A DNA stretch of 64,000 bases from Acidimicrobiia bacterium (GTDB lineage Bacteria; Actinomycetota; Acidimicrobiia; Spongiisociales; SHLN01). The stretch's first letter is position 1. The number at the start of each line of letters is the position of its first letter. Below, piece after piece: positions 2,682 to 32,590 of this stretch. The notes under the pieces were generated by a model. It worked only from the letters and a program-made list of their open reading frames with translations. It did not search any database and had not been told where the DNA came from. Where the stretch lies: contig JBFKDW010000001.1 in assembly GCA_041619515.1 (NCBI GenBank), positions 15,129 through 79,128 on the forward strand. Direction: 5' to 3'. Made by a program: the position numbers and the translations under genes.

Positions 2682-2701
2682 GCCGACTCCCGCGAGTCGG
2701 C
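2682..2701 (-). terminator. GC-rich hairpin (GCCGACUC-GCGG-GAGUCGGC) overlapping the stop codon of the REC-GGDEF gene; possible terminator/insulator ahead of the rib promoter
   Basis: Perfect 8-bp inverted repeat with a 4-nt loop seen in the sequence. The downstream tract (CCGCCUAUUCG) is only weakly U-rich. Confidence 0.3.
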
Positions 2702-3630
2702 TAGGTGTTTCTGCGGTCGATCTCGTAGACGGAGCCCGGCTGGCGCTTGGCGTATTCCTTCATCTCCGAAGCCACCGCAGATGCCTCCCATTGATTGGAG
2801 ATATCACGATCTTTGGTGCTCACCACACCCAGCGAGATCGAGGTATGCGGGAAGGCATGGCGCTCGCCACGGCGATCGGTCACCTCGATGTAGCCGCGCA
2901 AGACGTCGCTGGTGTCGTAGAAATCGAGAATGCCCTCGTCGAAGGTCCTGATGAGGGTTTTGCAGAAGTCCTCCACTCCGTCGGGATCGACGATGGCAAC
3001 GAAGTCATCCCCGCCGACGTGTCCGACGAAGGCCTCGGGGTCATCGAGCCCGGCCTGGGCCTCGAGCATCACGTGGGCGGTGAACTTGATCACCCCGTCT
3101 CCGCGCATGAAGCCGTAGTGGTCGTTGAAGGCTTTGAAGTTGTCGAGATCAGCGTGTACGAGGGCGTACGGCTCACCGCTTTCGGTGCGCCGCTCCAACT
3201 CCTGCGTTATCCGGAAATTCCCGGGGAGACCGGTCAGCGGGGAAAGGTCGCGCATCGCCTTGGCACGCTGGAGCACGGTCCGCACCCGCACCATGAGCTC
3301 GTCGAGCTCGAAGGGCTTCGAGATGTAGTCGTCGGCACCCAGCTCCAGGCCTCGAATCCGATCCTGCGGCAAAGCCTTGGCGGTCAGCACGATGACCGGG
3401 ATGTTGGTGCTCACCGGGTGGGCGCGCATGCGGCGCAGCACGGCGAGACCGTCCATCTCGGGCATCATGATGTCGAGGATGACCAAATCGGGGGCGTTCT
3501 TGGTCACCGCGGCCAGAGCCGCCTTGCCGTCGGTGGCCGATGACACCTCGTAACCCTCGAGCTGCAGGTTCACCGAAACGAACTGGACTATGTCCGGATC
3601 ATCGTCGGCGATGAAAATATGTTCGTTCAT
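2701..3630 (-). CDS. Response regulator with receiver (REC) and GGDEF domains; GGDEF motif reads GGDDF and there is no RxxD I-site
   Basis: REC: IADDDPDIV...DLVILDIMMPEMDG...VIVLTAKA...DDYISKPF. GGDEF domain: ADLDNFKAFNDHYGF...GHVGGDDFVAIV. GGDDF is confirmed at the DNA level (GGC GGG GAT GAC TTC at 3001-3015). The ATG at 3630 overlaps the rpe stop (ATGA). Confidence 0.85.
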   Translation of the reverse strand: MNEHIFIADDDPDIVQFVSVNLQLEGYEVSSATDGKAALAAVTKNAPDLVILDIMMPEMDGLAVLRRMRAHPVSTNIPVIVLTAKALPQDRIRGLELGADDYISKPFELDELMVRVRTVLQRAKAMRDLSPLTGLPGNFRITQELERRTESGEPYALVHADLDNFKAFNDHYGFMRGDGVIKFTAHVMLEAQAGLDDPEAFVGHVGGDDFVAIVDPDGVEDFCKTLIRTFDEGILDFYDTSDVLRGYIEVTDRRGERHAFPHTSISLGVVSTKDRDISNQWEASAVASEMKEYAKRQPGSVYEIDRRNT

Positions 3631-21081: not shown

Positions 21082-22230
21082 TCAGAAGCGGGTCAACCGT
21101 TTGCGGTAATGGTCGACCGCCGCCTGCAGATCGTCGACGGTGTCGCCACCGAACTTGCGCTGAACCTCCTGCGCCAGGACGATGGCCACCATCTGCTCGG
21201 CTACCACGCCTGCGGCGGGCACGGCACATACGTCGGATCTCTCCCGGATCGCCTTTTCCGGCTCCTTCGACGTGACGTCGACCGTCTGGAGGGCGCGCAT
21301 GAGGTTTGAGAGCGGCTTCATGGCCGCCCGCACCCGGATGATTCCGCCCATGCTCATGCCACCTTCGATCCCACCCGCCCGGTTGGTGTCTCGCACGAAC
21401 CCATCCTCGAAGCGGATCTCATCATGTGCCTTCGACCCGCGGCGGGTGGCTCCGGCCAGGCCGTCCCCGATTTCGACGGCCTTGATCGCCTGGATGGACA
21501 TGAGCGCCGCCGCCAGGCGAGCATCCAGCCGGCGGTCGTAGTGGACGTGGCTCCCGAGGCCCGGCATGGCGCCGTGCGCCACAACCTCTACGACACCGCC
21601 GAGCGTGTCGCGATCGGCCTTGGCAGCCTCGATCTCGGCGATCATCGCTTCGGCGCCTGCCGCGTCGAAGGCTCGCACCGGGGACGAATCGATGGCGGGA
21701 AGATCGGCCAGGGTCGGCACCGGGCCATCGGGAGCCCGGGCGGCTCCGATCGCCACGACGTGGCTGACGACCGTGATCTCAACCGCCGCCAGGAGCTCTT
21801 TGGCGAGGCTGCCGGCCACAGTGCGGGCTGCCGTCTCGCGCGCCGAGGCCCGCTCCAGGATGTCACGGGCATCATGCGTGTCGTACTTCTGCATGCCCGC
21901 CAGGTCGGCGTGACCGGGACGGGGGGCGGTCGCCGGGCGCTGTGACTCCCCAGGGAGAGGAGACATCTCACTGCTCCATTTATCCCATTCTGTGTTCCGG
22001 ACTACCACCGCCACCGGCGACCCGAGGGTCTTGCCGAACCGAACGCCGCCGAGAATCTCCAGTTCGTCGCGTTCGAGCTTCATGCGCGGTCCGCGGCCGA
22101 ACCCGAGTCTGCGGCGAGCCAGCTCGGCGGCGATGACCTCGGGGTCGACCCGGAGGCCCGCCGGAAGGCCCTCAACGATGGTGGTGAGGCCCGGGCCGTG
22201 CGACTCGCCGGCGGTCAGAAAACGCAACAT
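21082..22230 (-). CDS. aroC: Chorismate synthase
   Basis: MLRFLTAGESHGPGLTTIVEGLPAGL...GGRSSARETA. Start at the ATG at 22230. ORF 21082..22287 is over-extended. Confidence 0.85.
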   Translation of the reverse strand: MLRFLTAGESHGPGLTTIVEGLPAGLRVDPEVIAAELARRRLGFGRGPRMKLERDELEILGGVRFGKTLGSPVAVVVRNTEWDKWSSEMSPLPGESQRPATAPRPGHADLAGMQKYDTHDARDILERASARETAARTVAGSLAKELLAAVEITVVSHVVAIGAARAPDGPVPTLADLPAIDSSPVRAFDAAGAEAMIAEIEAAKADRDTLGGVVEVVAHGAMPGLGSHVHYDRRLDARLAAALMSIQAIKAVEIGDGLAGATRRGSKAHDEIRFEDGFVRDTNRAGGIEGGMSMGGIIRVRAAMKPLSNLMRALQTVDVTSKEPEKAIRERSDVCAVPAAGVVAEQMVAIVLAQEVQRKFGGDTVDDLQAAVDHYRKRLTRF

Positions 22231-22313
22231 GTAGAGGATGGTAGGCGGGAACCCAGGGCCGGCGTAGCTCCTTGCAGAGGTCTCCAACCACTAGGCGAAC
22301 ACGGCCGGCGAAG

Positions 22314-22856
22314 CTACTTGAGGATCTCTTCACCCACTGCAAGGGCAAACGGGCTGTCGCCGAACAAGAACGTGCCGCCCGTGTCGGTGAGGGTGACGAC
22401 CTGATAGCTGCCTGCAAACGTGTCGCCGACGCCAACCGTGTAGTCGGTTCCGGAGACGCGTACAACCGCTTGTCGCGTGCCGTCGCCGAGTGTGGTGACC
22501 GAGATCAGTGAGACCGGCGTGCCCCCCGGGTCGAAGCCGCCGTTGCCGCCGTCGCCGGTCCCATCGCCTTCCTCAGTGATGAGCGGCCGGAATGGATCGC
22601 GGGGCTGGGAGATCTGAAAGTCGTCGATCAACCGCATGCCGGGCAGGAGGTCGGCCGGCTGCTGGGAGACGATCCCCGCGTCGGCCAGCACCGTCGGCTC
22701 CAGCCGGTTGAGCGAAGATGACCCGATGAGGCTGGGAGCCACGAGCAGCCAGACGGCCGCGACCAGCAGCCCACCGACCAGGATCGAGCCGGTGCTGCTG
22801 GCAATGTGCTCTCGCAGACGAAGCAGCCGGCTGTCACGATATTCGAACTTCATCAT
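22314..22856 (-). CDS. PilP-like pilus assembly protein (N-terminal TM/signal anchor, Gly/Asp-rich linker, RDPF motif, C-terminal beta domain)
   Basis: N-terminal hydrophobic helix ILVGGLLVAAVWLLVAP, the conserved PilP-type motif RDPFRP, and a C-terminal beta-rich segment. The ATG overlaps the pilO stop (TAATG). No secretin follows; aroC is the next gene. Confidence 0.55.
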   Translation of the reverse strand: MMKFEYRDSRLLRLREHIASSTGSILVGGLLVAAVWLLVAPSLIGSSSLNRLEPTVLADAGIVSQQPADLLPGMRLIDDFQISQPRDPFRPLITEEGDGTGDGGNGGFDPGGTPVSLISVTTLGDGTRQAVVRVSGTDYTVGVGDTFAGSYQVVTLTDTGGTFLFGDSPFALAVGEEILK

Positions 22857-23446
22857 TATTCGCCGGCTCCATCGACAGGCTCGCCGGCATTTGCGACCGG
22901 GGCGCCGGCGAGATCGGATAGCGAGAAGGCGGTCGCAGTCATGGATACGGTCAAGATGTTTGTCCCGTCCTCATCCAGAGCCGAATCGATGCTGATCTGA
23001 TCGACCCGGACCAGGCGCTCGAGGTCCTCAATGGCAAAGAGAACGCTCAGTACCTTGAAATACGGTGCTTCGAAACGGATCGTCGTTGATATCTCGAAGA
23101 GGCCCTCCACGACGCTCGGAACGGGCGGGGTGGGGTTCAACGTGAGCAAGTCGACACCGGTGTCGACTGCGATGCTGTTGATGTCCTCGATGAGCGCCGC
23201 TCCGTCGGGGAAGGCGGGGATCGAGTTCTGAATCTCACTCAGCGCCAGGAGAAACTCTCCCTCCTTGGCGGCGAGCGCTTGCAGTTCGTTGCGGCGCGCC
23301 TCGAGAGTGGATTGCTCGATTTGCGCTGCCGCCTCTTGATCCTGGAAATCACTGATCTCGGTCGACTTGCCGGCCATGAACAGGAACCACCACCCGGCCG
23401 TTATCACGAGCACTCCCAGCACTCCGAAGATGAGCCCGCGCCGCAT
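22856..23446 (-). CDS. pilO: Type IV pilus inner-membrane alignment protein PilO
   Basis: Single N-terminal TM (LIFGVLGVLVITAGWWFLF), a coiled-coil region and a PilO-like periplasmic domain. Start at the ATG at 23446, overlapping the pilN stop. ORF 22856..23572 is over-extended. Confidence 0.7.
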   Translation of the reverse strand: MRRGLIFGVLGVLVITAGWWFLFMAGKSTEISDFQDQEAAAQIEQSTLEARRNELQALAAKEGEFLLALSEIQNSIPAFPDGAALIEDINSIAVDTGVDLLTLNPTPPVPSVVEGLFEISTTIRFEAPYFKVLSVLFAIEDLERLVRVDQISIDSALDEDGTNILTVSMTATAFSLSDLAGAPVANAGEPVDGAGE

Positions 23447-24069
23447 CAGGGGATCTCCGGTATTCGTTCGAACAACCTGCCGGACAGTGCGTCGGAGGTC
23501 AGACTGGTCGTCGAGCCAAACGTGACGACATCCTCCTCGGCGATCTGGCTCGCGATGATGCCGCTCGCCCACGTTCCCACCACACCGGGATAGCGGTCCG
23601 AGTCCAGGATCCGAATCCAGGCCGCCACGTCGGGCGGGGCGAATGCCGTGCCCGAAAAGGTGACCTCGCCGATGCTCGTGACGTCACCGGTGGGTGCAAC
23701 CGGGTTGGTGGTACCCGTGTAGTTGGTCACCCACACTCGATCGGGTATCAGCCTCCCGAGATCGTTGAGCAGCCGGCCCCAGCTGACGTCGTTGACGAGG
23801 GCGCTTCCCAGGAGCGTCACGCCGGCCTCGAACTCGTTGCGCACCGCCTCGGCCCCGGCCAGCGAGCTGACCTCCGCCTGGAGCTGCTGGTTGGTGGCCA
23901 GCTGAGCCTGCAGGTCGGCCTCGGCGTCGTTGACCGCCCCCTGTCGCCAGACGGCCACCGCGCCGAGCAGCAAGACATAGAGCACACCGAGGGCGAGCCA
24001 GAGGGCGAGCCGATTCCTCGCCTCGCTCGCTTTCTTCCCCGTCTGGGGTATGAGGTTGATCGTGCGCAT
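23446..24069 (-). CDS. pilN: Type IV pilus assembly protein PilN
   Basis: N-terminal INLIP motif (the PilM-binding INLLP motif), one TM helix and a coiled-coil. The ATG overlaps the pilM stop. Confidence 0.75.
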   Translation of the reverse strand: MRTINLIPQTGKKASEARNRLALWLALGVLYVLLLGAVAVWRQGAVNDAEADLQAQLATNQQLQAEVSSLAGAEAVRNEFEAGVTLLGSALVNDVSWGRLLNDLGRLIPDRVWVTNYTGTTNPVAPTGDVTSIGEVTFSGTAFAPPDVAAWIRILDSDRYPGVVGTWASGIIASQIAEEDVVTFGSTTSLTSDALSGRLFERIPEIP

Positions 24070-25160
24070 CAGCCCCCCCAGAGCGCCAGGCCGACGGGGA
24101 TGGGTATCACCGGCTGCATCGCGGAGATCTCAGCCTCGGACAGCTTGCCGGTGTTCAAGCCTTCGATGACCCGGGCGGGCTCGATCCGCGCACCGAGGGT
24201 GTCGCCGAGCCGGTTGGCGAGGTGCGGCAGCCGGGCTCCGTTGCCGGATACGATGATACGGCTGAGCTCGGCGTCATCGGACTGGCCCAGGTAGAAATTC
24301 ACCGAGCCGCGTACTTCGTCGATGAATCTCTCCGCCTGGGCATCGAGGATGGTTCGAGCTCGGTCCTCCAGCGCCGACACCGACGCGTCTCCGTCGTCGG
24401 CTGTGGGGGTGATGGCGGCGGCTTCCCCCCCAACCGGGGTCAGTCCCACCTGGCGCTTGAGGTCCTCGGCCTCTTCCCAGGTGACGTCGAGGCCGTCGAC
24501 CAGTGCGGCAGTGAAATCCTCTCCACCCTGCTGGAGCAAGCGGACAAAGCGCGGCTCCCCGGCGCGTACCAGCAACACCTGGGAGACCCCCGAGCCGATG
24601 TCGACGACCGCCGCCACGCTACCGATATCGAAATCACCGTAGAACAGGGCGCGGATGAGCCCGAAGGCTTGCAGGTCGAGGGCAATCGGCGTGATCCCGG
24701 CAGCATTGACCGCTGCGAGCAACGTTTCCACCATGTCCCGCTGCGCGGCCACGACGAGGATCGAGAGCATCGGCTCACCGTCGGGGGTGGTGAACTCCTC
24801 GATGGGGACGAAGTCCAGGAAGGTCTCCTCGACGGGGATTGGGATGTACTCCTGGACCTGGAACGGGAGTGCCTCGACCAGCTCGAGCTCACTCATGCGG
24901 GGAACGTCAACCTGGCGGACGATCACGCGTTGGTTGGCGAGGCCGAGCACGATGCGGCGCTTCGGCAGCTTGGTCTCCTTCCAGAGGCGGGAGATGGCGG
25001 CGGTCACGGCTTCGGGATCGACGATCTCGCCGGCCACCACCGCCCCGCGCTCGATGTCGACCTGGCCGATCCGGCGGATAACCGGGGGCTGTTTCCCGGT
25101 GTCGAGGGCGACGGCGCGCACACCGGTTGCGCCGATGTCCAGCCCCACGTTGACCGCCAT
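24069..25160 (-). CDS. pilM: Type IV pilus assembly ATPase-like protein PilM (actin/FtsA fold)
   Basis: MAVNVGLDIGATGVRAVAL... and an FtsA/PilM-like fold through to the C-terminus. An SD sequence GGAG lies 6 nt upstream. Confidence 0.85.
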   Translation of the reverse strand: MAVNVGLDIGATGVRAVALDTGKQPPVIRRIGQVDIERGAVVAGEIVDPEAVTAAISRLWKETKLPKRRIVLGLANQRVIVRQVDVPRMSELELVEALPFQVQEYIPIPVEETFLDFVPIEEFTTPDGEPMLSILVVAAQRDMVETLLAAVNAAGITPIALDLQAFGLIRALFYGDFDIGSVAAVVDIGSGVSQVLLVRAGEPRFVRLLQQGGEDFTAALVDGLDVTWEEAEDLKRQVGLTPVGGEAAAITPTADDGDASVSALEDRARTILDAQAERFIDEVRGSVNFYLGQSDDAELSRIIVSGNGARLPHLANRLGDTLGARIEPARVIEGLNTGKLSEAEISAMQPVIPIPVGLALWGG

Positions 25161-25193
25161 TGTTACTCCGCCTCAAGACACGAGCGCAGTGCC

Positions 25194-25207
25194 TTGTAAT
25201 TACAAGA
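25194..25207. promoter_or_regulatory. Perfect 14-bp AT-rich palindrome CTTGTAATTACAAG in the pilM upstream region (candidate operator)
   Basis: Seen in the sequence inside the only conspicuously AT-rich 100-bp stretch in the window (25161-25261). It lies about 35-47 bp upstream of the pilM ATG. A direct repeat ATTCGGG-N16-ATTCGGG lies 5 bp further upstream. Confidence 0.3.
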
Positions 25208-25261
25208 ATGTCATTCGGGAGATTAACAAACGATTCGGGCAGCGCAAGTCATAGCGGCGGC

Positions 25262-26038
25262 TCACCGGCCGAGATACCAGTCGACGAGCTGCTGCCCGAT
25301 CACCAGGGCCAGGTACGAGCCAAAGATCATGGCGGGTCCGAACGGGATCTTCGCCTTGCGGGTGGCTCTGCCGGCCAGCAGAAGGGCAATCGCGACCACC
25401 CCGCCGATGGCGATTCCGAGGGCAACGCCGGCGCCGAGCACCTCCCACGATCGATAGGTCAGGAAGAGCCCCAGGAAGAAGGCGAGCTTTACGTCACCCA
25501 GACCAAAGCCGCCGCGGGCGACGAGGGCAAGGGCGAGGAAGATCGCGAAATATAGGCTTGCCCCGGCGAGCGCCCGGCCAAAGGAAGCGAGATCTCCATC
25601 AGCGATGGCCGCCACGAGCAAGAGCGCAGCACCGACCAGCGTCGACGGATAGAGGATGCGATTCGGCAGCCGATGGACATCCAGGTCGGTGAGAACCAGC
25701 GCAAGGCCGACTCCCGCAAACCACAGGTAGGCCGGGAGCTCGGGCTCGATCCCAATAACGAGGACCGCAGACGCGAAGAGGATGGCGGCGCCCACCTCGA
25801 CGATCGGGTAGCGGACGCTGATATGGCCTCCACAGTCCCGGCAACGACCCCGCAGCAACACCCACGACAGCACGGGAATGTTGTCTCGCGGCCGGATGGC
25901 TGCCCGGCACACCGGGCAGGCGGACGGTGGTGAGACGACCGAGTGGCCGGCCGGGACCCGGTAGGCAACCACGTTGATGAACGAGCCGAAGATGAGGCCG
26001 AACAGTGCGGCCACGGCTACCGCAGGAAGGGCATCCAT
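25262..26038 (-). CDS. pilD: Prepilin peptidase (A24 family) PilD
   Basis: N-terminal zinc tetracysteine motif CPVC...CRDC, a polytopic membrane protein with catalytic Asp motifs (DLDVHRLP, GLGDVKL). Confidence 0.85.
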   Translation of the reverse strand: MDALPAVAVAALFGLIFGSFINVVAYRVPAGHSVVSPPSACPVCRAAIRPRDNIPVLSWVLLRGRCRDCGGHISVRYPIVEVGAAILFASAVLVIGIEPELPAYLWFAGVGLALVLTDLDVHRLPNRILYPSTLVGAALLLVAAIADGDLASFGRALAGASLYFAIFLALALVARGGFGLGDVKLAFFLGLFLTYRSWEVLGAGVALGIAIGGVVAIALLLAGRATRKAKIPFGPAMIFGSYLALVIGQQLVDWYLGR

Positions 26039-26066
26039 GAGGCCTCGACCCTAGTGACCGGGGGCG

Positions 26067-26543
26067 TTACCAGCCTGAAGCCGACCAGGTCCCGACGCCC
26101 GGGGGGCCGGCGGCGCTGCACGCACCGAACGGGTTCGCCGAGTGGCGGCCGAATTGGGTGCCACCGGCCGAGTTCTCCCAGATGGCGAGGAACTCACCGC
26201 GCGGGGTCCTGGCAACGAGACACACCACCTGAGCGGTGGGATCGATGGTGACGGCGACGGGGTCGAAGGTGTTGACGGCCGGGCTGGCACCGGTGACGTT
26301 GAACAAGCTCGGCTCGATCGCCGACAGCAGATCGAGATCGTCCGTGAACTGGGCTGCCCCGCCGGCGTAGTACGCCTTCTCCGTGGTGAGAGCGTTCCTG
26401 AGGTGGCTCTTGGCGGCCGAATCCTCCGCCTCCTTGCGTTGACCGAGGAAGGTCGGGATCGCAATGGCGATGAGGATCGCCACGATGAGGACGACGATCA
26501 TCAATTCGATGAGGGTGAATCCTCGGTCGTCTCTGCTCCACAT
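26067..26543 (-). CDS. pilA: Type IV major pilin paralog (class III signal peptide RG|FTLIELMIVV)
   Basis: MWSRDDRGFTLIELMIVVLIVAILIAIAIPTF..., a C-terminal Cys pair and ...SASGW. An SD sequence GAGAAGG lies upstream of the ATG at 26543. The rest of ORF 26067..26864 is an extension. Confidence 0.8.
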   Translation of the reverse strand: MWSRDDRGFTLIELMIVVLIVAILIAIAIPTFLGQRKEAEDSAAKSHLRNALTTEKAYYAGGAAQFTDDLDLLSAIEPSLFNVTGASPAVNTFDPVAVTIDPTAQVVCLVARTPRGEFLAIWENSAGGTQFGRHSANPFGACSAAGPPGVGTWSASGW

Positions 26544-26629
26544 GGCGGCGCCTTCTCGTTGACTGTACGTCGGGTTTTCGGCGCGGACCGACCGGCTCTT
26601 GAGCGATATGCGTCGCGAATCCGATGGCT

Positions 26630-26661
26630 CCCAACAACAGGAAACGGGCCCCGAAGGGCCC
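26630..26661 (-). terminator. Intrinsic terminator after the first pilin gene: GGGCCC-UUCG-GGGCCC stem-loop followed by GUUUCCUGUUGUUGG
   Basis: Seen in the sequence on the minus-strand RNA about 30 nt after the pilA1 stop. It has a GC stem, a UUCG tetraloop and a U-rich tail. Confidence 0.55.
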
Positions 26662-26688
26662 GAATCCGGTTTGCTTATCGAGCTGGGT

Positions 26689-27153
26689 TTACCAGCCGCC
26701 TGGCGTCCACGGAGCGCCGGGCTGGGCGACCGGGCAAGGCGCCGTAGTCGGAGCCGCCGCAGCTTTGTAGTAGACGGTTCCGGCAGTGGTCCCATCCCAG
26801 ACGGCGAAGTAGTCGCCGCCATCGCTCTGCTGCACGAGGCAGACAGAGACGCCACCAGCACCAATGGTCACCGTGACCGGGTCCGCACCGGTGCCGAACA
26901 GGTTCGGCTCGATGGCGGCAAGGTCGGCGGTGGTCGCCGTGAAGACCTGGTTCACGGAGAAGTAGGCCTTCTCGGTCGCCAGGGCGTTACGGACGTTGCT
27001 CTTGGCAGCGCTGTCCTGTGCGTTCTTCCGCTGACCCAGGAAGGTGGGGATGGCAATGGCGACCAGAATGGCAATAATCAGCACCACGACCATCAGCTCG
27101 ATGAGTGTGAAGCCCTCGTCCTTGTTGAGACGGGACCGCATCGCTTTGAGCAT
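26689..27153 (-). CDS. pilA: Type IV major pilin (class III signal peptide EG|FTLIELMVVV)
   Basis: MLKAMRSRLNKDEGFTLIELMVVVLIIAILVAIAIPTF..., a C-terminal Cys pair and ...TPGGW. A strong SD sequence AAGGAG lies 8 nt upstream of the ATG at 27153. Confidence 0.85.
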   Translation of the reverse strand: MLKAMRSRLNKDEGFTLIELMVVVLIIAILVAIAIPTFLGQRKNAQDSAAKSNVRNALATEKAYFSVNQVFTATTADLAAIEPNLFGTGADPVTVTIGAGGVSVCLVQQSDGGDYFAVWDGTTAGTVYYKAAAAPTTAPCPVAQPGAPWTPGGW

Positions 27154-27333
27154 CTGATGTTCTCCTTGCGAGCATCTACGGCCGAGCCTTTACCCGACCT
27201 TCGTACCCATGAGCTATCGACACGCTGGGTGACGAGTTGAGGCTTTTCCGTGGCTATTACCGGGCGCACCGACGCACTAGCGCGTCGAGCGGTGCTGCCT
27301 CGGTGGGGGCTGATGCGGCAGGTGCGGGAGCAC

Positions 27334-28554
27334 CTAGCCGACGACGTTGACCAGGTTGAACATCGGCAGGTAGAGAGCCACGAGGATGCCGCCGACCGTC
27401 AATCCCATGAAGGCGATCAGGAGCGGCTCGAGCAAGCTGGTGAGGGCGTCGACGGTGTCGTTGACCTCCTGGTCGTAGAACGACGCCACCTTCTCCAGCA
27501 TGGCGTCGACGGCGCCGGTTTCCTCGCCCACTGCGATCATCTGCACGACCATGGACGGAAACACCTTGTGCTTGGCGAGGGGCACGGCGAGCGAGTCGCC
27601 ATCCTTCACCGACTTGGCGACGTCGGCGACTGCGTCGGAAACGATCGCATTGCCGGCCACGTCCCGAACGATCTCCATCGCCTGCAGGATGGGAACTCCC
27701 GTCCGCAGCAGGACGCCGAGCGTCGAGGAAAAGCGGCTGATTGCCGTCTTGTGAACCACTCCCCCGAACACCGGCATCTTCAGCTTGGCGGCGTCCCACA
27801 CGTGCCGTCCGGCGGTCGTGTTGATCCACCGACGGAACCCCCAGACCGACGCCCCCATGAGGGGAAACACGATGAACCAGAAAGACTTCAAGAGGTCTGA
27901 GCCGCCGATGAGGATCTTCGTCGGCACCGGCAGCTCGCCCCCCGCCCCGGCGTAGAGATCCTGAAAGATCGGCACCACGAAGACGAGCATGGCGAGGACC
28001 ACGAGAGCAACCATCGAGAGCACGACGACCGGGTAGGCCATCGCCGACTTGATCTTGCTGCGTAGCGCCACCTGGTTCTCGAGGGCGGCGGCCAGCCGCA
28101 GCAGCGTGTCGTCGAGGACACCACCGGCTTCCCCGGCGCGCACCATCGACGTGTAAAGCTGGCTGAATGCTTTGGGGTGCTTCTCCAGAGCCGCCGAGAG
28201 CCCGACGCCCCGCTCGACGTCGCGCCTCACCTCTCCGATTATCCGGGCCAGCGCTTTGGACTCGGTCTGCTCCTCGAGCACCGAGAGCGACCGCAGCAGC
28301 GAGAGTCCGGCGTTGATCATGGTGGCGAACTGGCGGCTGAAGACCGCCACCTCCTTCGCCTTGACCCGGTCGCTCAGGCCGGGGATGTTGATCTCCGTCT
28401 TCAGGCCGCTCGTCTTGACCTCGTCGACCGCCAGAGGGACTGCCCCTCGTTCCCGCAGGGCCTTGACGACCGCATCCCGGGAGGAACCTTCGATCTGCCC
28501 CTCGAGGACCTTGCCGCTCTTGTCCCGGGCGCGATAGTCGAACATGGTGGCCAT
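27334..28554 (-). CDS. pilC: Type IV pilus platform protein PilC (GspF family)
   Basis: Two T2SS-F repeats and three TM segments. MATMFDYRARDKSGK...FSRQFATMINAGLSL... Confidence 0.9.
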   Translation of the reverse strand: MATMFDYRARDKSGKVLEGQIEGSSRDAVVKALRERGAVPLAVDEVKTSGLKTEINIPGLSDRVKAKEVAVFSRQFATMINAGLSLLRSLSVLEEQTESKALARIIGEVRRDVERGVGLSAALEKHPKAFSQLYTSMVRAGEAGGVLDDTLLRLAAALENQVALRSKIKSAMAYPVVVLSMVALVVLAMLVFVVPIFQDLYAGAGGELPVPTKILIGGSDLLKSFWFIVFPLMGASVWGFRRWINTTAGRHVWDAAKLKMPVFGGVVHKTAISRFSSTLGVLLRTGVPILQAMEIVRDVAGNAIVSDAVADVAKSVKDGDSLAVPLAKHKVFPSMVVQMIAVGEETGAVDAMLEKVASFYDQEVNDTVDALTSLLEPLLIAFMGLTVGGILVALYLPMFNLVNVVG

Positions 28555-30087
28555 TTATCCCCCTCCCAGCAGGTGTTTGAGACCCTCGGCGTCTGCACAA
28601 CGTTCGAATGCGAGCTCGCGGGTTATCTTCCCGCGCTGGACGAGATCCGCCAGAGCCTGGTCCATCGTCTGCATCCCGTGCTGGGATCCGGCCTGCATGG
28701 CGGAGGGGATCTGGTGCACCTTTCCGTCGCGGATCTGGTTGCGAATGGCGGCGGTGGCGATCATGACCTCGACGGCCACTATTCGGCCCTTCCCATCCTG
28801 GGTGGGGAGCAGCTGTTGGCTGACAACGGCCTGCAGGGAGCTTCCCAGCTGGACTCGCACCTGCGATTGCTGATGTGAGGGGAACACGTCGATGACACGG
28901 TCGATGGATTGCGGGGCGCTCTGGGTGTGCAGCGTTCCGAAGACGAGGTGGCCCGTTTCGGCCGCCGTCAGCGCCGCACTGATCGTCTCGAGGTCGCGCA
29001 TCTCCCCGACCAGGATGACATCGGGGTCCTGGCGTAGGACGTGCTTGAGCGCGTGATTGAAGCTGAAGGTATCCGTTCCGACCTCGCGTTGGTTGACCAC
29101 GGCCTTCTTGTGCTTGTGGAGGAACTCGATTGGATCCTCGATCGTCATGATGTGGACCGCTCGCTCCTCGTTGATGCGGTTGACGATGGCGGCGAGCGTG
29201 GTGCTCTTACCGGACCCGGTGGGGCCCGTCACCAGCACCAGTCCTCGATGCAGATTCGCCAGCGAGCCGACCACGGGAGGCATGCCGAGTTTCTCCGGGG
29301 TGACGATCTCGTTCGGGATCGCCCGGAGCACAGCACCCACCGAGTCACGCTGAAAGAACACATTCACCCGGAAGCGGCCGTGGCCCGGCACCGGGTGCGA
29401 GGCATCGAGCTCACGATTTTCCTCCAGGCGCTGACGCTGGTCGGCGGTGAGGATGCCGTAGATCATCCGGCGCAGCTCGGCCGGCATCATGATGCCGAAG
29501 TCCTCCAACGGCTGGAGACGGCCGTTGACACGGATCTGGGGCTCCGTGCCGGCCGTGAGGTGGAGGTCGGACCCGGCGTTGTCCATGAGGATCACGAGCA
29601 GATCGTTGAGATGGATCTCCTGCGAGGTCTCCACCCGGGGAGCATCGTTCTCGCTGAGCGTGAAGTAGTCGCCGAGGATGCGGTCGATGGAGCGCTTGGA
29701 CGCCAGCCCCAGCGATACCGGGCTGCCGCACGCGGTCTCGAGGGTCTCCCGCAAGTTGGCGGTGAAAGGGTCCGCGACAGCCACGACCACCCTCTCCTCC
29801 TCGAGCGCAACGGGCACCGCCACCATGCGGCGCGCGGTGTCGGCGTCGATGCGGTCGAGGGCATCCGGCTGGATGATGGTCTGCTCGAGGTTGATGTAGT
29901 CGATGCCGAGTTGCTCGGCTACCACCATCAGCAAGTCTGCGTCGCTCACGTGACCAGACGTCACGAGCGTCTTGGCGAGGGGAATGCCGCCCCGGCTCTC
30001 CTCGATGAGCAGGTCTTCGAGCACATCCCGGCTCAGGAGGCGCCGGTTCACGAGCGCCTCGCCGAGCTGTCGGCTTACTCGGCTCAT
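28555..30087 (-). CDS. pilT: PilT-family retraction ATPase with an extra ~140-aa N-terminal GspE-N1/MshEN-like domain
   Basis: Core: Walker A GPTGSGKST, Asp box, His box and the C-terminal AIRNQIRDGK (PilT AIRNLIRE motif), with no tetracysteine. The N-terminal extension LGEALVNRRLLSRDVLEDLLIEE ... LAKTLVTSGHVSDADLLMVVAEQ resembles the tandem 24-residue MshEN motifs. The ATG at 30087 overlaps the pilB stop (ATGA). Confidence 0.8.
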   Translation of the reverse strand: MSRVSRQLGEALVNRRLLSRDVLEDLLIEESRGGIPLAKTLVTSGHVSDADLLMVVAEQLGIDYINLEQTIIQPDALDRIDADTARRMVAVPVALEEERVVVAVADPFTANLRETLETACGSPVSLGLASKRSIDRILGDYFTLSENDAPRVETSQEIHLNDLLVILMDNAGSDLHLTAGTEPQIRVNGRLQPLEDFGIMMPAELRRMIYGILTADQRQRLEENRELDASHPVPGHGRFRVNVFFQRDSVGAVLRAIPNEIVTPEKLGMPPVVGSLANLHRGLVLVTGPTGSGKSTTLAAIVNRINEERAVHIMTIEDPIEFLHKHKKAVVNQREVGTDTFSFNHALKHVLRQDPDVILVGEMRDLETISAALTAAETGHLVFGTLHTQSAPQSIDRVIDVFPSHQQSQVRVQLGSSLQAVVSQQLLPTQDGKGRIVAVEVMIATAAIRNQIRDGKVHQIPSAMQAGSQHGMQTMDQALADLVQRGKITRELAFERCADAEGLKHLLGGG

Positions 30088-31748
30088 GCCACCACCCGCA
30101 TGATTTCCTCGAGAGACGTCATGCCGGAGGCCACCTTTTCCAAGCCGTCCTGCCACAGGGTCGTCATACCCTCTTCGATGGCAACGGCCTGGATCTCGTC
30201 GGAGGGGCGCCGCTCGACAGACATCCGCTGAATGTCCTCACTGACGAGCAGAACCTCGTGAAGCGCCAGGCGACCGCGATAACCGGTGTTGGCGCACGAC
30301 TGACACCCGACCGCTTCGAAGACATGCTTGGGCACGTCGAGGCCGGCAGCCTCGAACTTGTCGGCAGCGGGCGCCGCCTCCTGGCGGCACTTGTCACACA
30401 ATCGGCGCGCCAGCCGCTGAGCCAGGATGGCGTCTATCGACGATGCCACCAGATACGGCTCCACGTCCATTTCGATGAGGCGGCCGATGCTGGAAGACGA
30501 GTCATTCGTGTGCAGGGTGGAGAGCACGAGGTGGCCGGTGAGGGCGGCCTCGATCGCGATCTGCGCCGTCTCCCGGTCGCGAATCTCACCGATGAGCGCG
30601 ATGTCGGGGTCGGCGCGCAATATCGACCGTAGCGCCGAGGCAAACGTCAGGCCGGCTTTGCGGTTGACCTGGACCTGGGTGATCCCGGCCAGCCGATACT
30701 CGACCGGGTCTTCCGTCGTGATGATGTTCACTTCCGGCCGGTTGAGCACGTTGAGCGTGGCGTACAGCGTCGTGGACTTCCCAGAACCGGTCGGGCCGGT
30801 CACGAGAATGGCTCCGTAGGGCTTGGTGTAGGACGACTCGAAGCGGGCAAGGTTGTGAGCGCTGAAGCCGAGGTCGGTCAGCTCCAGCAAGATGGAGCTT
30901 CGATCCAGGATCCGAAGCACCACCTTCTCACCGTAGACCGAGGGCAGCGTCGCGACACGCAGGTCGACCTGGCGGCCCTGGACTTTGAGGCTGATACGGC
31001 CATCCTGTGGGATCCGTCGCTCGGCGATATTGATGTCCGCCATGATCTTGAGGCGGCTCACCATGGCGTTGGTTATCGAGCGGGGGGTGGTCATCGCCTC
31101 GTGCAGAACGCCGTCGATCCGGAAGCGGACCCGCAGGTCCTTCTCCCCCGGCTCGATATGGATGTCCGAGGCACGTTCGTTCATTGCCCGCGTGATGATC
31201 GTGTTCACCAGCTTGACGACCGGTGCTTCGTCGACCGAGGCTTCGATGGCGCTGAGGTCCTCGACTTCCGCTCCCTCGTCGAGCAGATCACCGAATTCCG
31301 AGACGGCATCATCGAACTGAGCCATCCTCGAAAGAGCATCCATGACCTCAGTGCGCGTGGCTACCTTGGGGCGGACATCCATGCCGGTGATGGCCCGGAT
31401 ATCGTCGATCGCCAGCACGTTGGCCGGGTCTGCCATTGCGACGATCAGGCTGCCGTCTTCGGAGAATCCGATGGGGATGGCGGCGTAGCGGCGGGCGAGG
31501 GCTTCCGGTACGAGAGCACTCGCCGAGGGATCGATGGTGACCTCGTCGAGGGCGACGAACTCCAGCCCGATATGGCGGGCAAGGGTCTTGACGAGATCGG
31601 TTTCCTTGACGAAACCCTCTTCCACGAGGATCCGCCCGAGAGGCATTCCGCTTTCGGCTTGAATCTCGGTCGCACGATCGAGATCGGCCCTGCTCAGCAG
31701 GCCTTCCTGGAGCAGCATCGTGCCGAGATGCCGCGCTTCGGTAGTCAC
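30084..31748 (-). CDS. pilB: Type IV pilus assembly (extension) ATPase PilB with N-terminal MshEN-type domain
   Basis: GspE-family core with Walker A GPTGSGKST and tetracysteine zinc motif (CDKC...CQSC). The N-terminus HLGTMLLQEGLLSRADLDRATEIQ and LGRILVEEGFVKETDLVKTLARHIG matches the tandem MshEN consensus RLGxxLLxxGLLxxxxLxxxLxxQ. Confidence 0.9.
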   Translation of the reverse strand: MTTEARHLGTMLLQEGLLSRADLDRATEIQAESGMPLGRILVEEGFVKETDLVKTLARHIGLEFVALDEVTIDPSASALVPEALARRYAAIPIGFSEDGSLIVAMADPANVLAIDDIRAITGMDVRPKVATRTEVMDALSRMAQFDDAVSEFGDLLDEGAEVEDLSAIEASVDEAPVVKLVNTIITRAMNERASDIHIEPGEKDLRVRFRIDGVLHEAMTTPRSITNAMVSRLKIMADINIAERRIPQDGRISLKVQGRQVDLRVATLPSVYGEKVVLRILDRSSILLELTDLGFSAHNLARFESSYTKPYGAILVTGPTGSGKSTTLYATLNVLNRPEVNIITTEDPVEYRLAGITQVQVNRKAGLTFASALRSILRADPDIALIGEIRDRETAQIAIEAALTGHLVLSTLHTNDSSSSIGRLIEMDVEPYLVASSIDAILAQRLARRLCDKCRQEAAPAADKFEAAGLDVPKHVFEAVGCQSCANTGYRGRLALHEVLLVSEDIQRMSVERRPSDEIQAVAIEEGMTTLWQDGLEKVASGMTSLEEIMRVVA

Positions 31749-31801
31749 GTTGTCTCCTTGCCTCTATCCCGGTGGGCTTTCGGCAGTGAATGGGTGAGGC
31801 T

Positions 31802-32590
31802 TTAGAGATTCGACCCCGGCGAGTGGTCACGCGCAACGGCCTCTCGCATCGCCGAAAGAGAGGGGGTCACGCCGGTCCAGAGCTCGAAGGAAAGGGCCGC
31901 CTGATGCAGCAGCATTTCGATCCCTTCCACCACGGGTATGCCGAGGCCGGCTGCATGCTCGACTGCCGGAGTTGGGACCGGACCGTAAGGCATATCGAAG
32001 AGTCCGCCGGCCGATTCGAGGAGGCGATCGGGAAGGTGCCGGGCGTGCATCCCGAGCGGGGTGGCGTTGACCACCACTGCCCCATCGATCGGCTCACCCC
32101 AGCGGGCTACCGTGGCTTCGACACCGGTCCTGGTGATCAGCGCCGCGGCTGCCTCGGGGCGTCGCGCGGCCACCATGAGTGGTCGGCCCTCGAGCGCCAC
32201 CATGGCAGCGGCAGCGGCGCCGCCGGCGCCCAGGAGGAGCACCGCACCGTCGGGGAGGCCGTCCCAGGCCCGTCTGATCGCTTCGACATCGGTCGACTCT
32301 CCAATAACGACGCCGTCGGACACGATGAGGGTGTTGACGCTGGCGGCCCGATCGGCCTCAGGCCCGACGACGTCGACCAGGCGGGAGGCCAGCGCCTTGT
32401 GGGGCATGGTGACGTTGGCGCCATCGAGCCCACCGCGCCGCAGGTCGGCGACGGCGGCCTCCATCCCGGCCGCATCGGTTCGGCGTGCCACGTACGATCC
32501 ATCGACGCCGGCCGCTCGCAGCGCGGCGGTGTGCAGCCGTGGCGACAGGCTGTGTGACACCGGGTCACCGAGCAGCGCGAGCTTCAGCAT
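31802..32590 (-). CDS. aroE: Shikimate dehydrogenase
   Basis: Contains LGDPVSHSLSPRLH...NVTMPHK...LLLGAGGAAAAA, an AroE. Confidence 0.85.
   Translation of the reverse strand: MLKLALLGDPVSHSLSPRLHTAALRAAGVDGSYVARRTDAAGMEAAVADLRRGGLDGANVTMPHKALASRLVDVVGPEADRAASVNTLIVSDGVVIGESTDVEAIRRAWDGLPDGAVLLLGAGGAAAAAMVALEGRPLMVAARRPEAAAALITRTGVEATVARWGEPIDGAVVVNATPLGMHARHLPDRLLESAGGLFDMPYGPVPTPAVEHAAGLGIPVVEGIEMLLHQAALSFELWTGVTPSLSAMREAVARDHSPGSNL

Follow-up and report, generated by a model that had tools for sequence, protein, structure and literature searches.

Can the extension ATPase of a type IV pilus read the second messenger cyclic di-GMP (c-di-GMP) through a domain whose two binding motifs have no arginine at their first position? 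The question is raised by the gene pilB (30084..31748, GTG start), which encodes a protein of 554 amino acids (aa) in a stretch of 64,000 nucleotides (nt) from the Acidimicrobiia bacterium GCA_041619515.1 (contig JBFKDW010000001.1, positions 15,129-79,128). This whole stretch, called here the window, is the sequence that was analysed; all coordinates are positions within it, and every feature given below lies on its minus strand. MshEN, the c-di-GMP-binding module in question, was first described in Vibrio cholerae MshE, and its published consensus, RLGxx(L/V/I)(L/V/I)xxG(L/V/I)(L/V/I)xxxxLxxxLxxQ, occurs twice with a 5-residue spacer; in each motif R1, L2, G3, L17, L21 and Q24 contact the ligand, 12 contacts in total (Wang et al., 2016, PMC5013675). 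We propose, with moderate confidence, that the N-terminal domain of this PilB is an arginine-less MshEN that still binds c-di-GMP with moderate affinity and would thus couple pilus extension to the messenger.

That the protein is PilB, as a preliminary description of this DNA had named it, is borne out by its T2SSE core and by the complete type IV pilus cluster in which it is encoded, together with pilT, pilC, prepilins, pilD and pilMNO. Pfam T2SSE covers the ATPase core (466 bits, residues 172-551), and with a Walker A (GPTGSGKS), a tetracysteine CxxC...CxxC (CDKC...CQSC) and an N1 domain the protein has the full architecture of a type IVa extension ATPase. Against NCBIfam type_IV_pilB (TIGR02538) it scores 624 bits, below the equivalog cut-off of 675.65, so that the name rests on context. 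A 100% identical 554-aa protein is present in the database, close homologues are named PilB by jgi, and the closest relatives come from uncultured Acidimicrobiia.

The translation of the pilB open reading frame (ORF) opens MTTEARHLGTMLLQEGLLSRADLDRATEIQAESGMPLGRILVEEGFVKETDLVKTLARHIG, the interval 31556-31748 being its codons 1-64, and it fits a two-motif unit of 24 + 5 + 24 residues, 53 in all. Motif I, HLGTMLLQEGLLSRADLDRATEIQ, spans residues 7-30 (31659..31730), exactly where the preliminary description had placed it; the spacer, AESGM, has the canonical length of 5 residues (31-35, 31644..31658); and motif II, PLGRILVEEGFVKETDLVKTLARH, takes up residues 36-59 (31572..31643). For this second motif residues 36-60 had been given, and it is indeed present, with a register off by one, since LGRIL starts at residue 37. 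The C-terminal subdomain of MshEN follows (GSPII / T2SSE_N1, residues 61-146, 31311..31568), matched by Pfam MshEN (PF05157) with 77.6 bits and alpha/beta in the AlphaFold model. PilB matches the consensus at 17 of the 22 specified positions, 9/11 in motif I and 8/11 in motif II (9/11 when one allows the F of the V. cholerae version). Motif I departs from the consensus with R1->H7 and L21->T27, motif II with R1->P36, an F at position 11 and Q24->H59. Gly3 of both motifs is kept (Gly9 and Gly38), as are five of the six cluster leucines, among them the complete guanine-2 cluster (Leu8, Leu52, Leu56). The near-canonical, almost position-by-position fit of the preliminary description is therefore right as far as structural core and glycines go, and fails at the contact residues, where only 8 of the 12 agree. 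A Shine-Dalgarno sequence AAGGAG (31754..31759), read from the sequence 5 nt upstream of the GTG at 31748, argues for the long N-terminus (MTTEARHLG...), to which the HLG of motif I belongs. Several homologues in the databases (P0016, P0018-P0020, P0022 and P0038-P0040) are called from the internal Met11 (MLLQEGLL...) and lose this HLG, the interval concerned in the window being 31716-31748.

The motif match is far beyond chance because of homology: the PilB N-terminus is, judged by its sequence, a true MshEN_N homologue. A search of residues 1-159 with phmmer found MshE (5HTL) at E=1.6e-17 and PilF of Thermus thermophilus at E=4.6e-52. The NCBIfam model NF053729 ('c-di-GMP_motif'), which describes the MshEN motif in 53 positions with a cut-off of 38 bits, aligns residues 8-58 to its positions 2-52 of 53 with 56.9 bits (E=1.3e-15). 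The profile check suggested in the preliminary description thus came out positive, and what it shows is homology, not binding. We calibrated this model on fragments of known binding behaviour. The binders MshE, PilF-C, PilF-B and Myxococcus xanthus PilB score 86.3, 84.1, 63.3 and 62.5 bits, the window PilB N-terminus 61.9, and the non-binder PilF-A 55.1; a Geobacter PilB, whose behaviour we did not draw from the cited papers, reaches 68.1, the 'PLTR' relative P0069 reaches 49.0, and the N-domain of the window PilT reaches 36.7. As PilF GSPII-A also passes the cut-off, we rejected NF053729 as a discriminator between binders and non-binders. Pfam MshEN was likewise set aside as a motif test, since it covers only residues 61-146, the C-subdomain, and carries no motif information. 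An AlphaFold2 model of residues 1-150, built from a 41-sequence alignment, has a predicted local distance difference test (pLDDT) value of 92.4, with helices at 3-14, 20-33, 37-43 and 49-60 followed by the alpha/beta subdomain. Its top Foldseek match in the PDB is 5HTL, the complex of MshE with c-di-GMP (E=1e-11, template modelling (TM) scores 0.74/0.79, root-mean-square deviation 2.7 A). Fold comparison was also rejected as a discriminator, since binders and non-binders are retrieved at similar Foldseek scores.

How the domain relates to those already characterised is best seen in the positions themselves, the reference sequences for these counts having been taken from PDB alignments. V. cholerae MshE has 21 of the 22 specified positions and all 12 contacts, with a dissociation constant (Kd) of 0.5 uM; GSPII-B of PilF has 18/22 and 10/12 (Kd 6 nM); M. 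xanthus PilB, a binder, also has 18/22 and 10/12; and GSPII-A of PilF, which does not bind, has 16/22 and 6/12. With 17/22 and 8/12 the window PilB is, by its residues, intermediate between these reference domains, its bundle hydrophobics and glycines fitting and four contact residues deviating. Like MshE (5HTL; Wang et al., 2016, PMC5013675), it is an extension ATPase of type IV pili with two N-terminal motifs set 5 residues apart, and in the top Foldseek match the two are 34% identical (TM 0.74-0.79). They share both Gly3, both Leu2, Leu17 of both motifs, Leu21 of motif II and Gln24 of motif I; what separates them is Arg9->His7, Arg38->Pro36, Leu29->Thr27 and Gln61->His59 (contacts 12/12 vs 8/12), and some distance in NF053729 score (86 bits vs 57-62). 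Nearer in kind are GSPII-B and -C of T. thermophilus PilF (8PDK; Neissner et al., 2024, PMC11731258), arginine-less MshEN domains in which c-di-GMP binding persists. At position 1 GSPII-B carries Lys and Leu where the window PilB has His and Pro, and the two are level in NF053729 score (63 vs 62 bits); motif II of GSPII-C starts PLGEILVE, and that of the window protein PLGRILVE. However, PilF has three tandem domains and the window PilB one, and GSPII-B and -C keep Leu21 and Gln24 in the motifs used, whereas the window PilB has Thr27 and His59. A single N-terminal MshEN on an extension ATPase, as here, is found in M. xanthus PilB, Chloracidobacterium thermophilum PilB (CtPilB, measured Kd 53-107 nM) and Clostridium perfringens PilB2, the last showing that the mechanism exists in monoderm bacteria. 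Unlike the window PilB, these proteins have Arg or Lys at position 1 and Gln24 in both motifs, although M. xanthus PilB has Gln in place of Leu at motif I position 21 and no Gly at position 10. The non-binders XpsE (2D28), the PilB N-domain of Xanthomonas citri (7LKM) and PilF GSPII-A (9G1W) have the same fold, but they have lost Gly and several cluster leucines (G11V, G40L, L54H, L58C and Q61V in XpsE; GSPII-A reads SLA...), whereas the window PilB keeps both glycines and five of the six leucines.

We then asked which positions have been retained among relatives, the clade counts referring to 42 non-redundant Acidimicrobiia-type PilBs. Motif I position 1 is His in 36 of them and Arg only once, position 2 is L, I or F, position 3 is Gly in 41 and position 24 is Gln in 40; the guanine-2 cluster is conserved in 39-41 of the 42, and the spacer residue Gly34 is invariant. 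Motif II begins with Pro, Ser or Ala and ends at position 24 in His (22) or Gln (18). Constraint is relaxed at motif I position 21 and at motif II positions 3, 10 and 24 (I-21, II-3, II-10 and II-24 for short). In 39 other Actinomycetota motif II is nearer to canonical (Gly 38/39, Gln 33/39) and motif I position 1 is mostly Gln. Gly at II-3 goes together with Gln at II-24 and a hydrophobic residue at I-21, and Thr or Ser with His and a polar I-21 (Fisher p=0.003); the state at II-3 changes only about twice on a quick neighbour-joining tree of the ATPase part, and we rejected this covariation as independent evidence, since it mostly reflects one clade split. When 25 unique close homologues are compared, 2 of the 12 contact positions vary (the non-canonical contacts are counted as well), against 16 of 31 for the others (Fisher p=0.046), which hints faintly at selection on the pocket in its present form.

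A receptor would need a supply of messenger, and the only candidate for a c-di-GMP-type enzyme in the 64-kb window is a response regulator with a receiver (REC) domain and a GGDEF-like domain of signature GGDDF (2701..3630), assigned by Pfam and located between ribD and rpe, 27 kb from pilB. Pfam Response_reg matches it with 113.6 bits and GGDEF with 44.3 bits, the latter over profile positions 5-89 of 161 only; the translation holds HVGGDDF, and the best solved relative is PleD. Its family, of about 308 aa, shares at least 64% identity across Acidimicrobiia, and 108 or more of 120 homologues have GGDDF. A regular-expression search of the six frames of the window gave no GG[DE]EF or HD-GYP signature and missed the GGDDF protein, later found by Pfam; the EAL-like and DxSxxG-like strings that it returned, and one PilZ-like string in a non-coding frame, were judged chance matches. 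The sole Rfam family at gathering score in the window is a flavin mononucleotide (FMN) riboswitch (2515-2632, 112 bits), upstream of the ribD-like gene at 1404-2504. For Actinobacteria, GGDEF counts between 0 and 80 are given in the literature, and Streptomyces and Mycobacterium account for all the experimental work. The remark of the preliminary description that little c-di-GMP biology is documented in this clade is right for experiments on Acidimicrobiia, but four Actinobacteria had been listed by 2016 as having MshEN as their sole known protein receptor for c-di-GMP (Wang et al., 2016, PMC5013675), RsiG c-di-GMP receptors have been reported in 3/4 Acidimicrobiales species, and MshEN-T2SSE proteins are listed for 'most bacterial phyla'.

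A considerable body of observations weighs against binding. Four contacts deviate (H7, T27, P36 and H59, leaving 4/6 + 4/6). Position 1 holds His7 and Pro36, outside even the extended consensus of R, K or L; the guanine-1 cluster is incomplete, with Leu37 and Leu23 present and Thr27 at position 21; and Gln24, kept in motif I as Gln30, is replaced in motif II by His59. At the site of Thr27 the MshE mutant L29V loses 4x and L29A 28x in affinity, and at that of His59 Q61A loses 11.8x. In the literature we found no described c-di-GMP binder with His at position 1 or 24; binding is absent in PilF GSPII-A, where position 24 of motif I is His and motif II is degenerate. The NF053729 score of the window protein (56.9-61.9 bits) is close to that of this non-binder, and the non-binders 9g1w (PilF-A), 2d28 (XpsE) and 7lkm (X. 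citri PilB N-domain) come close behind MshE in Foldseek. Within the clade I-21 is variable (R, V, I, Q, T, A; Leu is rare) and II-3 is Gly in only 18 of the 42, with Thr in 20 and Ser in 4; binding would thus not be a uniform requirement of the clade, given Thr or Ser in place of this Gly in about half of its members and the lack of constraint for Leu at I-21. The window lineage keeps both glycines but carries Thr27 and His59, the states typical of the degenerate subgroup, and its nearest more canonical relative (P0068) reads HLG...L..Q / PLG...L...L..Q, with Leu and Gln at those two sites. On the side of supply, GGDDF proteins are usually regarded as inactive, the one enzyme shown to be active, GSU1937, being a cyclic GMP-AMP (cGAMP) synthase; the scanned ORFs of the window (a few ORFs were not scanned) hold no EAL, HD-GYP or PilZ domains, and an Rfam scan of the window gave no c-di-GMP riboswitch. 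Taken in this direction, the N1 domain (N1D) would be a ligand-free structural or mechanical element, decayed from a c-di-GMP-binding ancestor as in the PilB of Pseudomonas aeruginosa and Xanthomonas, XpsE and PilF GSPII-A, which docks PilB on the PilM/PilC platform or transmits ATP-driven movements, and in which the motif persists as the hydrophobics and glycines that build the bundle. We consider this a real possibility, if somewhat short of likely. The contacts kept at only 8/12, a profile and a fold that cannot tell PilB from non-binders, the relaxed positions (I-21, II-3, II-10 and II-24), the Thr or Ser at II-3 in half of the related PilBs, a window lineage that recently left Leu and Gln at two contact positions, a window without a canonical GGDEF gene and a review literature that gives N1D a ligand-independent mechanical role would all fit it. 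It accounts less well for the retention of both glycines and of Gln30 (40/42), a Gln24 residue with no described structural role, for contact positions that are less variable than the others in close relatives, and for the PilT N-domain of the same genomes, which is clearly different and more degenerate (see below); moreover, there are natural binders with comparable single deviations.

Another way to read the same residues is that His7 and Pro36 mark an altered specificity and not decay, the pocket binding some other ligand or partner, be it 3'3'-cGAMP or a protein such as PilZ. Conservation of the His that opens motif I is strong (36/42) and not random, MshEN_N binds cGAMP weakly (Kd 3.3e-4 M), the window encodes a conserved REC-GGDDF protein and the only GGDDF enzyme described as active makes cGAMP, and the PilB N-domain of X. 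citri (7lkm), a structural match of ours, binds PilZ. Nevertheless, we think this very unlikely. MshEN does not bind c-di-AMP, and its backbone amides accept only guanine O6/N7; with the base recognized by the backbone, changes of side chains are unlikely to switch base specificity (on the same published grounds we rejected c-di-AMP as a ligand of PilB). The REC-GGDDF protein keeps an Asp (in GFMRGD) which, aligned by eye, corresponds to the base-specificity Asp of PleD, and does not have the diagnostic Ser of cGAMP-type enzymes; and there is no PilZ-domain gene among the scanned ORFs of the window.

Returning to an arginine-less MshEN that binds c-di-GMP, the published mutants suggest how strongly it might do so. 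Position 1 tolerates R, K and L in binders; changing R9 of MshE is reported to cost less than 5x, and in PilF-B K167R loses 25x and L196R 4x, while K167L gains affinity. PilF GSPII-C, which has Pro at motif II position 1, binds c-di-GMP (attributed Kd2 about 0.3-0.5 uM), and M. xanthus PilB is reported to bind c-di-GMP despite a Gln where motif I normally has Leu21. With Pro at position 1 of motif II in PilF GSPII-C, and Gln at I-21 in the M. xanthus binder, binding by the window PilB is plausible, although probably weaker. Both glycines, whose loss in MshE is severe (G11L does not bind, G40I binds 72-fold less well), are kept in PilB. Thr27 in place of a cluster Leu and His59 in place of a Gln lead us to expect a moderate affinity; a substitution at a Gln can be costly (Q190E in PilF-B loses 83x), and His59 might still donate a hydrogen bond. 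Naive multiplication of the MshE losses from 0.5 uM gives a few uM to hundreds of uM, with the reservation that mutational effects are not additive across backgrounds, and our best guess is a low-to-mid micromolar affinity, on the order of 1-50 uM, where canonical domains have a Kd of 0.5 uM or better. Such an affinity would lie at the edge of the cellular c-di-GMP concentrations reported (0.05-10 uM, and up to about 50 uM elsewhere).

Residues 1-146 form an MshEN (GSPII / N1D) with a four-helix bundle of two tandem motifs (3-60) and then the alpha/beta subdomain, and by analogy with the complexes of MshE and PilF GSPII-B a single c-di-GMP, in extended form, would span this bundle. His7 and Leu37/Leu23/Thr27 would flank guanine 1, whose Hoogsteen edge would accept hydrogen bonds from the backbone NH groups of Gly9 and Thr10; Pro36 and Leu8/Leu52/Leu56 would flank guanine 2, bonded in turn to the backbone NH of Gly38 and Arg39; and the ribose-phosphate would be contacted by Gln30 and His59. 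A bound ligand would then make the N-domain more stable and help the PilB hexamer to engage productively with the PilC/PilM platform, so that pilus extension would rise with c-di-GMP, a coupling like that of V. cholerae MshE. In characterised systems c-di-GMP affects assembly, not the ATPase rate in vitro. The prediction of c-di-GMP control of pilus extension made in the preliminary description is in this sense a reasonable one, although as an ordinary inference from homology it is not very novel. If it is true, direct control of pilus extension by a second messenger would extend to Acidimicrobiia, an abundant and mostly uncultured class of aquatic and soil bacteria in which we know of no experimental work on c-di-GMP. 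His and Pro would also join the residues tolerated at the guanine-stacking position, refining the prediction of MshEN receptors from sequence. In any case, Pfam MshEN, NF053729 and similarity of fold do not separate binders from non-binders, and annotations based on them should not be taken as functional predictions.

More unusual than the PilB motif are three findings around it, namely the REC-GGDDF protein, an MshEN-like N-domain on PilT and a WhiG-like promoter site. The retraction-type ATPase PilT (28555..30087, 510 aa; its ATG overlaps the pilB stop in ATGA) matches NCBIfam pilT_fam over residues 160-499 (480.6 bits, cut-off 319.1) and is preceded by a 150-residue MshEN/GSPII-like domain with its motifs at about 29911-30069. 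Pfam MshEN recognizes it with 50.4 bits, NF053729 gives the full protein 32.9 bits, under the cut-off of 38, and the AlphaFold model (pLDDT 85.7) has 5HTL as its top PDB match. In 86 sequences of this domain I-24 is never Gln (Glu in 67, Ala in 16) and II-3 never Gly (Ala in 60); it has thus lost, in the same genomes, the motif I Gln and motif II Gly that PilB retains, a pattern that would be expected of a domain kept for structure only or drifting without a ligand. According to a recent (2024) review, N1D distinguishes extension from retraction ATPases. PilTs with an MshEN-like N-domain nevertheless fall into more than 100 protein clusters (the named ones from Acidimicrobiia), and they adjoin pilB in 17 related loci of Actinomycetota. 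Certain PilT homologues (343-353 aa) have no N-domain in the gene calls. In loci of the class Actinomycetes (L006, L008, L010, L014 and others) the distance from the end of pilB to the start of the PilT ATPase-core match is about 600-900 nt, more than the 480 nt of the window PilT N-domain, and this gap gave no MshEN-like match at E<=1e-5; the PilT of this class may have a more divergent N-terminal extension, or there may be a small intervening gene.

In the aroE-pilB spacer a sequence of the sigma-28/WhiG type, TAAA-N16-GCCGAAAG (31777..31804), a consensus match only, ends 29 nt upstream of the pilB start, and a second, TCAA-N16-GCCGAAAA (26575-26602), immediately precedes the second prepilin; if up to 2 mismatches are allowed, there are only 3 such sites in the whole window, counting both strands. 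Among related loci 5 of 52 have one within 160 nt upstream of pilB, where 0.35 would be expected, and in one of them (L002) the distance from pilB is the same as in the window. In Rubrobacter, WhiG promoters under the control of RsiG-(c-di-GMP) drive type IV pilus genes. One may speculate that these pieces belong to a two-level, two-motor switch, described for no pilus system, in which both motors bear an MshEN/GSPII N1, that of PilB ligand-competent (His/Pro) and that of PilT ligand-dead (with Glu or Ala for Gln in motif I and Ala for Gly in motif II), c-di-GMP decides which N1 occupies the platform, and an RsiG-WhiG-type promoter gates pilB. Such a switch would serve the monoderm pilus of Acidimicrobiia and many other Actinomycetota, with c-di-GMP possibly coming from the REC-GGDDF regulator. 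As a whole we consider this scheme improbable.

The rest of the pil cluster follows pilT directly (pilC to pilO, 22856..28554) and was assigned with Pfam: pilC (27334-28554, T2SSF), two prepilins (26689-27153 and about 26067-26534, N_methyl), pilD (25262-26038, Peptidase_A24), pilM (24069-25160, PilM_2), pilN (23446-24069, PilN) and pilO (22856-23572, PilO). An ORF without a Pfam family (22314-22856) lies within the cluster as well. On its far side is aroC (21082-22287, Pfam Chorismate_synt), and on the pilB side aroE (31802-32590), named from its translation and from conserved gene order, not from the family-library scan. The order mltG-aroE...pilB-pilT-pilC recurs in related loci across Actinomycetota. 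In the window a block of shikimate genes (21082-32590) is thus interrupted by the whole pil cluster, with aroE on one side and aroC-aroK on the other.

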